Source: Escherichia coli
GTDB taxonomy: Bacteria; Pseudomonadota; Gammaproteobacteria; Enterobacterales; Enterobacteriaceae
DNA length: 64,000 nt
NCBI RefSeq assembly: GCF_044324875.1
Contig: NZ_CP172185.1
Strand: one strand, 5' to 3'
Positions within the stretch are counted from its first letter, which is position 1. Every line of letters begins with the position of its first letter. The translations under genes were made by a program, and so were the position numbers. Shown one piece after another: positions 61,922-63,583 of this stretch. The notes beneath the pieces are model-generated. The model was not told the DNA's origin. It saw only the letters and a program-made list of their open reading frames with translations, and ran no database searches.

Positions 61922-62839
61922 ATGTCCCGTAAATCGTCACGTTCCAAAGTTGAAGTCTTTCGCAAGTCATTCATCTCACTTGCCCGTGATTGTGGTGGCA
62001 GCTACGCAACAACCGCTGACAGAATGCGAATTGCCAGATACTTTTTGAATTATTTGCAAGTAAACGGTATCAAACTTCGTCAGACGGGCAGTATTAAGAC
62101 GAGGCATATTTCTGGTTATCTTCTCAGCAGGAAAGAGCAGGGGATCTCTCACCGCACAATTCAGAATGAACGGGCAGTTATGCGCGCAATTCTAGAGAAA
62201 GATGGTCGCCTTAAAATAGCGGATCCGTCCAATCCTTTATTGAGCAATGAAGCTCTTGGACTCAGGGATACATGCCGTGATGGTAAAAAGATACCACTCT
62301 CACAGGATGAGTTTAATAAAGCCTTCAGTAAGGTTGAAAAAAATAATCCCGGTGTTGCTGCAGTAATGCAAATTTCTTATGTTCTTGGACTGAGGACAAA
62401 AGAAGCTGTTCAGTCTTGTAAATCAGTTAACTCGTGGCTACGTGAACTTGATTCAGGGCATGATTCTCTTCTCGTTGTTTTTGGGACGAAAGGTGGAAGG
62501 CCCAGAGATACAACGATCATTAATCGTGATGCAGTGAAACATGCGCTCATTTATGCAAAAAACATTATGGATAAACAGAATGGTAAACTTATCGATTGCC
62601 CCAATATTAAACAGGCTATAAACGTATATCGTTACCATGTAAGAAAAGCTGGTTTATCTGGAGTGAAGGCACCACATAGTATGCGTTATCATTTTTCGCA
62701 GGAAGCAAGGCAGTTTTATCGAAAAAGTGGATATGGAGATAAAGAAATTTACGCAAGGGTTTCCATGGACCTTGGTCATGGTGACGGAAGAGGGCGTTAT
62801 GTAAAACAGGTCTACTTTAAAGGCGATGATGAGAGCTGA
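61922..62839 (+). CDS. Tyrosine-recombinase-like (integrase domain) protein
   Basis: N-terminal SAM-like region; C-terminal half with ...GTKGGRPRDTTI..., ...HSMRYHFSQ..., ...RGRYVKQVY... in the order expected for an R...HxxR...Y catalytic core (tentative). Confidence 0.55.
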   Translation: MSRKSSRSKVEVFRKSFISLARDCGGSYATTADRMRIARYFLNYLQVNGIKLRQTGSIKTRHISGYLLSRKEQGISHRTIQNERAVMRAILEKDGRLKIADPSNPLLSNEALGLRDTCRDGKKIPLSQDEFNKAFSKVEKNNPGVAAVMQISYVLGLRTKEAVQSCKSVNSWLRELDSGHDSLLVVFGTKGGRPRDTTIINRDAVKHALIYAKNIMDKQNGKLIDCPNIKQAINVYRYHVRKAGLSGVKAPHSMRYHFSQEARQFYRKSGYGDKEIYARVSMDLGHGDGRGRYVKQVYFKGDDES

Positions 62840-62842
62840 TAT

Positions 62843-63583
62843 TTAAAATGAATCCGGAGGATATGTGTTTTTCGCGAACTTATTAATTTCTGTAATAAGA
62901 ATTTCTGATGCACGATTACACATGCTCTCATTAAAGTATCCTATATGGCATTCATGGATGCGGCAATTTAGTTTTCTGGATAGCCATCTGTTTGCCTCGT
63001 TACGGGATATATTTGTTTTTTGCTGATAGCTGTCAAAAAGTTTACGCACTTGTGCTCTGAGTATTCTCAAATTTTCTTTAGCTGGAGTACCTAATGGTCT
63101 CCCTGAATTTTTATGACATCCAACCCATGCATTGCATGGGCTGCAAATCCAGTAATATTTGTTTTCTGTAGTGGGTGTCGTGGAAAATGGCATAAGTGCA
63201 CCTTTTCTGAGTTGTGCCTTATTACCACAGTAAGTGCAGATTACAATTGGACGAACATCTGCAATATTCAGTGCTGCATAAGTAAGACGTTCATTTTTCA
63301 TCATGTTTCGTTTTCCACAGTCAGTGAGAATATGCTTTATTGTGTCTAATTCTTCTCGGAGTATTTTTGAACGGACGCCAGTTCGATAACGCTGTTGAAA
63401 GTAGAGCTCAATATGGCGTAGTTTTATACTATTTATTGATTTTATCTGTATATTGGATTCTTTAAGAAATGAAGCAAATCTTCTGGCTCTCCCCATATAT
63501 ACCAGTATGTCTTCTGGTGTCGGGGCGCATGCTTTAGCTATTTTGATTAGCTCATCTTTTAATTTTTTGTATTTCGATTTCAT
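62843..63583 (-). CDS. Integrase-N-terminal-like domain fused to a Cys-rich zinc-ribbon domain (no catalytic core)
   Basis: N-terminus (…KSINSIKLRHIELYFQQRYRTG…) parallels that of the convergent recombinase-like gene (…TGSIKTRHISGYLLSRKEQG…); C-terminal CTYCGN...CSPCNAWVGCH. Confidence 0.45.
   Translation of the reverse strand: MKSKYKKLKDELIKIAKACAPTPEDILVYMGRARRFASFLKESNIQIKSINSIKLRHIELYFQQRYRTGVRSKILREELDTIKHILTDCGKRNMMKNERLTYAALNIADVRPIVICTYCGNKAQLRKGALMPFSTTPTTENKYYWICSPCNAWVGCHKNSGRPLGTPAKENLRILRAQVRKLFDSYQQKTNISRNEANRWLSRKLNCRIHECHIGYFNESMCNRASEILITEINKFAKNTYPPDSF

Follow-up and report, generated by a model that had tools for sequence, protein, structure and literature searches.

Gene content and setting of the locus

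The window, by which we mean the whole 64,000-nt stretch of Escherichia coli DNA that was analysed, is part of an integrative conjugative element (ICE) of the SPI-7/PAPI-1/ICEclc type (MPF-G) at tRNA-Phe of E. coli. A + strand gene encoding a protein of 305 aa and a - strand gene encoding a protein of 246 aa converge in it with a gap of 3 bp (Table 1), as an earlier reading made from the sequence alone (the sequence-only reading) had described. The 305-aa gene, referred to below as the PF12835 gene after its Pfam match, lies 3' of the MPF operon (TraG_N) and 5' of the ArdA/ArdC/SSB/DUF1281 genes in each relative, and TraG_N was found upstream of it in the window and in 6 relatives. The 246-aa gene runs opposite to all neighbouring genes. 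The same ICE encodes its own tRNA-Phe integrase and an Rci-type shufflon recombinase, both separate from the 305-aa protein, together with a canonical MOB_H TraI-domain protein, a UvrD helicase, and plasmid-like replication and partition genes (a DnaB-type helicase, ParA and ParB). A search with the PADLOC defence models gave no match.

Upstream of the PF12835 gene, the RNA motif STAXI, an inverted repeat, the RNA motif EFASI and the gene itself follow one another on one strand. This order was constant in the relatives scanned, except that no STAXI was reported at the K. oxytoca locus (L005) and three contigs (L004, L006 and L019) were too short or cut; the position of EFASI was the same in all relatives examined.

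The repeats that flank the gene pair are real, as the sequence-only reading had it. A third copy, at 26989-27238, shares 88-98% identity with these two 250-nt copies (B and C in Table 1). The three have the same, direct orientation and belong to STAXI, and each precedes a + strand operon. Because copy A sits 34 kb away in front of a replication gene, the repeat is not specific to the gene pair. Indeed, STAXI elements precede many other operons (PMC2864571). A TTGAC-like -35 hexamer stands before copies A (26886) and C (63697) at the same offset as before copy B, and the promoter and terminator matches were together no more numerous than expected by chance. Since sigma-70-like sites lie just upstream of all three copies, an ordinary RNA leader is a simpler reading of STAXI than a single-stranded-DNA promoter.

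Table 1. Features of the locus, with positions in the window
Feature	Position	Strand	Basis
STAXI copy A, two Rfam matches, upstream of a STY4528-family replication gene	26927..27238	+	Rfam, repeat alignment
Sigma-70 promoter-like site TTGACG-18-TATTCT, 15 nt upstream of STAXI copy B	60901..60930	+	Consensus match only
STAXI copy B (Rfam RF01728 match 60945-61117, 250-nt repeat to 61194)	60945..61194	+	85.3 bits against a gathering score of 40.5
Terminator-like hairpin immediately 3' of STAXI copy B	61191..61205	+	Consensus match only
Block common to small circular E. coli plasmids that lack a recombinase-like gene (94-97% identity), including the candidate oriT and EFASI	61238..61914	+	Sequence comparison
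Perfect 11-bp inverted repeat GGCGTCACTTG-N20-CAAGTGACGCC, candidate oriT core	61368..61409		Conservation
Second conserved inverted repeat, 15-nt arms, 8-nt spacer	61531..61568		Alignment
EFASI RNA motif (RF02957), between the candidate oriT and the gene	61642..61764	+	71.7 bits against a gathering score of 51.2
305-aa tyrosine-recombinase-fold protein (PF12834 + PF12835), proposed MOB_M (MpsA-type) relaxase	61922..62839	+	Pfam, conservation, model
246-aa protein: core-binding domain 1-95, DUF3268 zinc domain 114-228, YPPDSF C-terminal tail; proposed MpsB-like accessory protein or regulator	62843..63583	-	Pfam, model
Promoter-like site for the - strand gene, between inverted-repeat arms 63642-63655 and 63685-63698	63629..63657	-	Consensus match only
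STAXI copy C, heads the next operon (hypothetical genes, ArdA, others); promoter-like site 63697-63726	63740..63989	+	Rfam, repeat alignment

The recombinase-fold protein and its zinc-ribbon partner

In Pfam searches the + strand protein matched Phage_int_SAM_2 (PF12834) with an E value of 1.2e-22 and Integrase_1 (PF12835) over the full length of the model (1-149 of 149) with an E value of 2e-51. The sequence-only reading gave its length as 318 aa, which is what an upstream ATG at 61883 would yield. Because position 61922, the coordinate that this reading had itself used, is the start in RefSeq and in each of the 24 homologues aligned, we corrected the length to 305 aa. R158, K190, H252-x-x-R255, H286, Y293 and Y298 are invariant in the 24 homologues, which share 53-87% identity. 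The AF2 model (pLDDT 87.5) consists of a core-binding domain and a catalytic domain, and the top 25 Foldseek matches in the PDB were all tyrosine recombinases (IntI, Tn1549 Int, lambda Int and Cre), with about 290-345 aligned columns. As modelled, the 305-aa protein has a genuine tyrosine-recombinase fold with a complete catalytic set, so that the tentative assignment of a catalytic core to the + strand protein was upheld by structure prediction as well as by conservation. Its distant relatives occur on small plasmids of Francisella, Acinetobacter and Clostridium. An NCBIfam search returned a weak, sub-threshold XerC match for the protein and no relaxase name.

The - strand protein shares the N-terminal domain: it matched PF12834 with an E value of 2.3e-11, and BLASTP aligned the N-terminal parts of the two proteins at 25% identity over 134 aa (E 6e-10), in agreement with the integrase-SAM-like segment that had been proposed for both. 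The catalytic-domain match was confined to the + strand protein. In its place the 246-aa protein matched DUF3268 (PF11672; E 7e-27) and contains the zinc motif of that family, CxxC...CxxCxAxVGCH...ECHIG, which substantiates the earlier claim that a zinc ribbon has replaced the catalytic domain. Across 35 sequences, no variation was seen at C116, C119, C147, C150, H157 and H213. The predicted structure is a four-helix core-binding domain followed by a zinc ribbon and a helical domain, and each domain of both proteins has a pI of about 10. Both genes are under purifying selection, with dN/dS values of 0.07 for the enzyme and 0.15 for the partner. Sequence and profile searches of the PDB with the two proteins gave nothing informative on function, and we found no structural or functional precedent for the DUF3268 part.

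The fused gene lay beside or near a PF12835 gene in 6 of 6 independent contexts (39-85% identity), and the same was true of all 50 E. coli genomes that have the fused gene. Since the two genes are linked across diverged elements, a role as accessory partner is plausible. The sequence-only reading had offered an accessory or a directionality factor, and the second half of this proposal was not sustained, as neither the model nor the searches revealed an Xis-type (winged-helix/excisionase) fold in the 246-aa protein. The PF12835 gene stands without the partner in most elements, including those of Salmonella, Yersinia and 23 E. coli genomes, and the partner is therefore not essential in general; in some strains its gene is split or truncated. 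The fusion of a core-binding domain to DUF3268 is new and rare, and the proposed relaxase part is already known. The idea that the pair is a plasmid-borne unit was rejected: on plasmids both families occur apart, and the full-length fusion was found on none.

A candidate transfer-initiation module and its known counterparts

In a 12-sequence alignment, the inverted repeat at 61368-61409 was the most conserved element upstream of the PF12835 gene and nearly invariant. The exact pattern GGCGTCACTTG-N20-CAAGTGACGCC was present in 16 loci, among them both small plasmids (L013 and L014). The window contains it a single time, and 100 shuffles gave 0 matches. In addition, positions 61224-61377 of the window share 87% identity over 154 nt with the O157:H7 strain EDL933, in its TAI island. 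The candidate cognate site is thus also present on elements without the gene, namely the EDL933 TAI island and the two plasmids. The host strains of the 3.1-kb plasmid form (64.1 and TUM9803) also have the ICE, and the ICE may mobilise such gene-less islands and plasmids in trans. We had also considered that the small plasmids were captured next to the gene, on its upstream side, in the manner of an integron or as cointegrates; because the whole 3.1-kb plasmid has no chromosomal copy, this idea was dropped in favour of mobilisation in trans.

We propose, with moderate confidence, that the 305-aa protein is a MOB_M relaxase with an origin of transfer (oriT) just upstream, accompanied by an MpsB-like zinc-ribbon accessory protein. 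As a tyrosine-recombinase-like nickase of the MpsA, MobK and TcpM kind, the 305-aa protein would start conjugative transfer by binding and nicking an oriT immediately upstream of its own gene, with the inverted repeat above as the putative core. EFASI would lie between oriT and gene at the place of the sgm-sRNA that is needed for SGI1 mobilisation, and STAXI would form the 5' leader of the transcript that crosses this region. The 246-aa protein, with its core-binding domain and basic two-part zinc domain, would act on the same DNA as the relaxase, either as a relaxosome accessory like SGI1 MpsB or as a competitor that tunes nicking. A need for a second relaxase is not obvious, because the ICE already encodes the MOB_H TraI-domain protein.

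The assignment to MOB_M draws on PF12835, which has been published as the 'INT_DTR_like' signature for the SGI1 atypical relaxase MpsA (PMC10484663). A link to the proven relaxase TcpM is transitive only: the C. perfringens plasmid protein WP_224395300.1 aligned with the 305-aa protein over its full length (E 2e-14), with Y298 paired with its tyrosine, and WP_224395300.1 in turn aligned with TcpM in the R-K-HxxR-H-Y region (E 6e-6). TcpM matches PF00589, not PF12835, and hhalign of the 305-aa family profile against TcpM gave no match.

The closest counterpart in gene order is the SGI1 module, which runs oriT, sgm-sRNA, mpsA and mpsB (Kiss 2019 PMC6414798; Nagy 2021 PMC9299015), and in which MpsB, a protein with a core-binding domain only, is essential for transfer (PMC6414798). 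The locus resembles it in five respects: a tyrosine-recombinase-like protein of about 300 aa, tied to MpsA through the published use of PF12835 (PMC10484663); a site rich in inverted repeats that precedes the gene by a few hundred bp; a small-RNA element separating this site from the gene; a terminator-like hairpin close to the primary transcript start; and a second protein made of a recombinase core-binding domain. However, the MPF-G ICE described here is self-transmissible, whereas SGI1 is an IncC-dependent mobilisable island. The partner here is fused to DUF3268, convergent and missing from most relatives, while mpsB is co-transcribed; and the RNA motifs here are STAXI and EFASI, of which the latter is likened to sgm-sRNA by position.

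MOB_M relaxases are described in the accessible part of a preprint (10.64898/2026.01.13.699239) as abundant in chromosomes, often annotated as integrases and tied to MPF-G ICEs such as SGI-4, and O157 TAI islands are described there as holding a matching orphan oriT. The 305-aa protein probably belongs to this group, as it is chromosomal, annotated as an 'integrase', linked to MPF-G, and preceded by a block shared with the O157 TAI island. The zinc-ribbon partner, STAXI and EFASI are, however, not mentioned in that part of the preprint (10.64898/2026.01.13.699239), and the four WP accessions it gives were not among the ten 90%-identity clusters checked or the two annotated E. coli variants. 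The relaxases MobK (pIGRK) and TcpM (pCW3) likewise have recombinase catalytic residues and an oriT just upstream of the gene, and MobK requires its catalytic tyrosine; unlike the 305-aa protein, which has PF12834, they are described without a core-binding domain (PMC8152469).

The Rfam record has exactly this arrangement, with STAXI followed after a few hundred bp by EFASI and then by an 'integrase' gene (PMC2864571; PMC12370729), and the Rfam text excerpted in PMC12370729 expands the name EFASI as 'Enterobacteriaceae, Frequently Around STAXI and Integrases'. The excerpted record gives no function for STAXI or EFASI, whereas here the 'integrase' would be a probable relaxase and the interval a probable oriT. 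More tentatively, it is possible that STAXI and EFASI are working parts of MOB_M transfer-initiation modules. STAXI would lead the primary transcript through oriT, EFASI would be the sgm-sRNA counterpart required by the relaxase, and the zinc-ribbon protein would be a hitherto overlooked component of the relaxosome, or a switch, reading that same hairpin-forming DNA and perhaps delivered or anchored via its conserved YPxDSF C-terminal tail.

Alternative explanations and implications

Because the 305-aa protein retains the full recombinase architecture, it could also carry out strand exchange. An unlikely but serious alternative is that it is a true site-specific recombinase which resolves multimers of the excised, replicating ICE, like Cre/loxP or Xer/cer, with its site in the upstream region and the partner as an architectural or specificity factor. 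The complete two-domain fold and the invariant catalytic set fit this explanation, as do the DnaB-type helicase, ParA and ParB of the element and the relatives on small plasmids, where resolution would help. However, recombinase core sites have spacers of 6-8 bp; the sole strongly conserved inverted repeat has 11-bp arms and a 20-nt gap, and an inverted-repeat search at the locus revealed no site of the core type with a spacer of that length. Gene-less chromosomal TAI islands also contain the upstream block, which there would be useless as a resolution site and useful as an orphan oriT, and the MpsA signature PF12835 likewise argues for a relaxase. The sequence-only reading had favoured another recombinase role, in which the pair, together with the repeats on either side, makes up a small cassette that can move or invert, with the repeats as substrates and the partner as directionality factor. 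The repeats do bracket the pair, and the pair is kept as a unit in several elements. Since the repeats are direct, inversion is excluded. Elements without the partner have the STAXI copies around the PF12835 gene just the same, in one relative (L020) the partner is located beyond the pair of repeats, and the product of a repeat-to-repeat deletion was found in 0 of the 5,426 E. coli genomes searched. STAXI also heads other operons, and the partner has a core-binding and zinc fold, not that of an excisionase. This cassette model is largely refuted, and we regard it as very improbable. The likeness to integrase-excisionase (RDF) pairs and to shufflon Rci/Hin cassettes lies in a recombinase-fold protein beside a small DNA-binding partner; the locus differs from them in its non-Xis partner, in its direct and non-specific repeats, and in that integration and shufflon functions are encoded elsewhere. 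The element has other recombinases for its integration at tRNA-Phe and for its shufflon, which counts against the cassette model and in favour of the relaxase reading. The anatomy of the locus likewise agrees with a module for conjugative DNA processing rather than with a recombination cassette.

The remaining alternatives concern how the two proteins would act. It is rather doubtful, although conceivable, that the enzyme is a relaxase and the partner its antagonist, whose core-binding domain occupies oriT and blocks nicking and whose convergent transcription hampers the relaxase mRNA, so that transfer is limited or switched after establishment. The convergent genes with their 3-bp gap and no terminator between, a separate promoter-like site for the partner between inverted-repeat arms, its orientation against all neighbours and its dispensability in many lineages are consistent with this possibility. 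On the other hand, the core-binding-only MpsB of SGI1 is a positive factor (PMC6414798), and because the N-terminal domains are only 25% identical, a shared DNA specificity of the two proteins is not assured. Finally, the 305-aa protein might have the recombinase fold but serve, without catalysis, as a DNA-binding regulator of the downstream anti-restriction operons, comparable to SPbeta YopR/MrpR or phi3T SroF. We consider this most unlikely: six catalytic positions are invariant over 53-87% identity and the gene has a very low dN/dS, and a loss of catalysis is therefore not expected.

If the MOB_M reading is true, 'integrase domain-containing protein' genes in many enterobacterial islands would be transfer-initiating relaxases with an oriT just upstream. 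This would help to predict which islands are mobile, including those that may carry resistance, virulence or anti-defence cargo, and which gene-less passengers, such as the O157 TAI islands and small plasmids, are mobilised. It would also offer a testable function for two RNA motifs that have been without one since 2010 (STAXI) and 2017 (EFASI). The combination of a recombinase DNA-binding domain with a DUF3268 zinc domain would represent a new kind of accessory protein, and would provide a first point of entry to the function of DUF3268, which occurs in thousands of proteins from phages and plasmids.

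Domain content of the gene pair and its setting

The two genes converge with a 3-bp gap, as the sequence-only reading had described (ORF boundaries at 62839 and 62843). Its start for the + strand gene also stands, but not its length of 318 aa, since a start at 61922 gives 305 aa; the alternative ATG at 61883 would give 318 aa, and 61922 is the start both in the RefSeq annotation of a record with 99.9% identity and in 24 of 24 aligned homologues. Pfam searches found Phage_int_SAM_2 (PF12834) N-terminally in the + protein (E 1.2e-22) and in the - protein (2.3e-11). A direct alignment of the two N-terminal parts (25% identity over 134 aa, E 6e-10) agrees with the proposed common integrase-SAM-like segment. 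Integrase_1 (PF12835) was matched over the full model in the + protein only (E 2e-51) and DUF3268 (PF11672) in the - protein only (E 7e-27), so that the catalytic domain is indeed confined to the + protein.

Among 24 homologues of this enzyme (53-87% identity), R158, K190, H252-x-x-R255, H286, Y293 and Y298 are invariant. Its AlphaFold model is confident (pLDDT 87.5). In Foldseek, tyrosine recombinases such as IntI4, Tn1549 Int, lambda Int, Cre and XerH make up the best 25 and most of the best 50 PDB matches, and these alignments span both domains. The predicted R...HxxR...Y core and catalytic fold are thus supported, and sequence and profile searches of the PDB found no solved relative. The family comprises 1,586 clusters at 90% identity, mostly from Enterobacterales, and a dN/dS of 0.07 indicates strong purifying selection on the enzyme gene.

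At 99.9% identity the region matches E. coli chromosomes whose annotation shows an integrative conjugative element (ICE) with TIGR037xx 'integrating conjugative element' genes. The ICE also has an SPI-7-type DnaB helicase, ParA/ParB, TraD and TraG_N, a gene content that points to an MPF-G element, and it adjoins the kps capsule cluster. In relatives, the element end holds a UvrD helicase, a TraI-domain (MOB_H) protein, a tyrosine integrase and tRNA-Phe, and a type IV pilus operon of the element includes a shufflon recombinase, so that integration and shufflon inversion have enzymes of their own. The pair lies 3' of the TraG_N gene and 5' of a gene block that includes ArdA, LPD29 and DUF1281 proteins. 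In the related locus L001 (1-1775; NZ_CP182371.1, 99.9% identical to the window), the annotation gives traD, the gene of the coupling protein, as frameshifted, and this copy of the element may therefore be transfer-defective. A GCTTGTT heptamer tract of about 19 copies (58025-58157), a candidate slipped-strand phase-variation tract, occupies a variable region between TraG_N and the second STAXI copy. The replication/early-gene part holds 36-nt tandem repeats (at least 8 copies, 74-91% identical) and 12-nt repeats (9 copies) at 23439-23839 and 29493-29636, the latter unit being an AEGLAEGRAEG-like coding repeat.

Features of the gene pair and the surrounding DNA
Feature	Position	Strand	Basis or remark
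Enzyme ORF	61922-62839	+	ORF listing, RefSeq annotation
Partner ORF	62843-63583	-	ORF listing
YPxDSF tail of partner	62846-62863	-	also in DUF3268 proteins P0001-P0009, P0134, P0139, P0218
250-nt repeats (STAXI copies A, B, C)	26989-27238, 60945-61194, 63740-63989		all in direct orientation
Promoter-like sites before A, B, C	26886-26914, 60901-60930, 63697-63726		consensus match only
Terminator-like hairpin directly 3' of B	61191-61205		consensus match only
Perfect 11-bp inverted repeat, 20-nt spacer (candidate oriT core)	61368-61409
EFASI (RF02957)	61642-61764	+	Rfam gathering-threshold scan, 71.7 bits

STAXI, EFASI and the DNA upstream of the enzyme gene

The 250-nt repeats on either side of the pair are real, and in the Rfam gathering-threshold scan all three copies in the window are STAXI (RF01728; 85, 83 and 66+62 bits). 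STAXI was named after nearby Ssb, Topoisomerase, Antirestriction and XerDC-Integrase genes (PMC2864571), and EFASI stands for 'Enterobacteriaceae, Frequently Around STAXI and Integrases', with no function assigned in the Rfam text as reproduced in PMC12370729. The synteny is therefore already on record, though unexplained. Across 12 related loci, where long enough, the order is constant: STAXI, about 500 bp, EFASI, about 150 bp, the PF12835 gene, the next STAXI and anti-restriction genes (no STAXI was reported in L005, and the full order does not show in L004, L006 and L019, which are cut or too short).

The sequence-only reading took the repeats as the boundaries of a small mobile or invertible cassette. 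This model fails, since the repeats are direct, STAXI heads other operons, and no repeat-to-repeat deletion product was found in 5,426 E. coli genomes; nor are the repeats specific to the pair, the STAXI-EFASI-PF12835 order being the same with or without the zinc-ribbon gene in the 12 loci as far as these extend. A TTGAC-like -35 hexamer lies 41-44 nt 5' of each of the three STAXI copies (consensus match only). This arrangement suggests that STAXI may be the transcribed 5' leader of each + strand operon, in which case the second 'bracketing' repeat belongs to the next operon, and a single-stranded-DNA promoter is not needed as an explanation.

The inverted repeat at the candidate oriT core is the most conserved element upstream of the gene in an alignment of 12 upstream regions; its pattern is exact in 16 loci, without a chance match in the window. 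A block from 61238 to 61914 recurs at 94-97% identity on two small circular E. coli plasmids (L014, NZ_CP059920.1, 3140 bp; L013, NZ_CP100506.1, 5319 bp), both with STAXI, the candidate oriT and EFASI and no PF12835 gene. L014, a rolling-circle plasmid, encodes a Rep_1-type 'protein rep', and the usual relatives of this plasmid are about 2.1 kb; the 3.1-kb form occurs in two genomes only (strains 64.1 and TUM9803), both of which also have the ICE with the pair. The segment 61224-61377, with which the upstream block begins, is 87% identical to the tellurite/urease (TAI) island of E. coli O157:H7 EDL933 (L027, NZ_CP124742.1, 6001-6155; a record labelled a 212-kb plasmid, yet containing chromosomal island genes). 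The island resembles the window in its neighbouring genes (for type B L31, Hok/Gef and a 223-aa protein) and has no PF12835 gene. A 92-aa ORF antisense to EFASI (61583-61861, -) is open in the small plasmids, a DNA identity of 94-97% being uninformative on coding; in SGI1, ORFs predicted across the oriT and small RNA region proved dispensable as genes.

The zinc-domain partner

In 35 sequences, C116, C119, C147, C150, H157 and H213 of DUF3268 are invariant, and the partner is basic in both halves (pI 10.1 and 9.5). DUF3268 alone is common (2,908 matches in 1.84 billion representatives, for the most part in proteins of 120-180 aa) and occurs on phages and phage-plasmids. Twice it stands beside DUF4942 genes (L022 4342-6804, a phage-like contig; L028 6992-9145, a Klebsiella phage-plasmid), which may be a recurring gene pair. 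Its fusion with the core-binding domain is rare, with six clusters at 90% identity and about four full-length representatives at 50%. A PF12835 gene is near the fusion in every context found, convergent and adjacent in five (gaps 3-43 bp), and in one 1.9 kb off, upstream of a STAXI element. In E. coli, 50 of 50 fusion-bearing genomes have the enzyme gene and 23 more have the enzyme alone; the fusion is also absent from Salmonella and Yersinia relatives, one Salmonella element having a standalone DUF3268 gene in the equivalent neighbourhood.

A dN/dS of 0.15 in each half indicates that the partner is functional where intact, and it is split or truncated in some strains. The core-binding and zinc-finger parts are annotated as two ORFs in several E. 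coli strains (genome records H143, H153 and H154), and a 152-aa N-terminal form (P0003) is present in 26 sequences; these are either decayed genes or a split, MpsB-like form that occurs naturally. The C-terminal tail YPxDSF-COOH, which recurs in DUF3268 proteins of ICEs, whether fused or standalone (11 of 161 DUF3268 proteins examined), may be a docking peptide.

A probable relaxase and a proposed accessory protein

PF12835 ('INT_DTR_like') is the Burrus laboratory signature for the SGI1 relaxase MpsA (PMC10484663). In the SGI1 mobilisation module, the oriT spans 125 bp and is rich in inverted repeats, and the interval from there to mpsA encodes a small RNA that is essential; the proteins of the module are MpsA, which is tyrosine-recombinase-like, and MpsB, which has 98 aa and resembles a recombinase core-binding domain (PMC6414798, PMC9299015). 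A 2026 preprint (10.64898/2026.01.13.699239) reports MOB_M relaxases to be abundant in chromosomes, often under the name of integrase, and O157:H7 TAI islands to have a matching oriT without a relaxase. The present locus fits this picture, in that the PF12835 gene follows the MPF operon and part of its upstream DNA is common to the EDL933 TAI island. We somewhat favour the view that the + protein is a MOB_M relaxase with its oriT upstream and the partner an MpsB-like accessory with an added zinc domain. Relaxase activity, the identity of oriT and the role of EFASI are what we infer; the likeness to SGI1 is by published Pfam signature and locus layout. TcpM, which matches PF00589 and not PF12835, has no hhalign similarity to the enzyme family profile. 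The + protein can be aligned over its full length with a plasmid protein of C. perfringens (E 2e-14, Y298 paired), and this plasmid protein in turn matches TcpM across the region of R, K, HxxR, H and Y (E 6e-6); by sequence, this transitive link is the sole bridge from the + protein to TcpM.

Were the enzyme instead a true recombinase and the upstream site its resolution site, it would be hard to explain why the site travels without the enzyme on chromosomal islands and small plasmids. Recombinase core sites have spacers of 6-8 bp, and a spacer of 20 nt, as is typical of oriT hairpins, makes the inverted repeat unlike such a site. As for the partner, 'accessory partner' survives from the sequence-only reading and 'directionality factor' does not, as the partner's predicted fold has no excisionase-like structure. 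On the present analysis, the simplest reading would be an MpsB-like oriT-binding accessory that gained a zinc domain. The main alternative is an antagonist of the enzyme, which the convergent arrangement without a terminator between the genes and the partner gene's own promoter-like site (consensus match) would suit.

The literature already covers the MOB_M class, its association with MPF-G elements and the synteny of STAXI, EFASI and 'integrase'; in the papers examined we found neither the Rfam motifs STAXI and EFASI tied to the MOB_M oriT and small RNA layout nor a description of the core-binding and DUF3268 partner. An enzyme-free site on islands and small plasmids is what mobilisation in trans predicts. 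Since a MOB_H TraI-domain protein is also present in the element, the ICE would carry two relaxase types.
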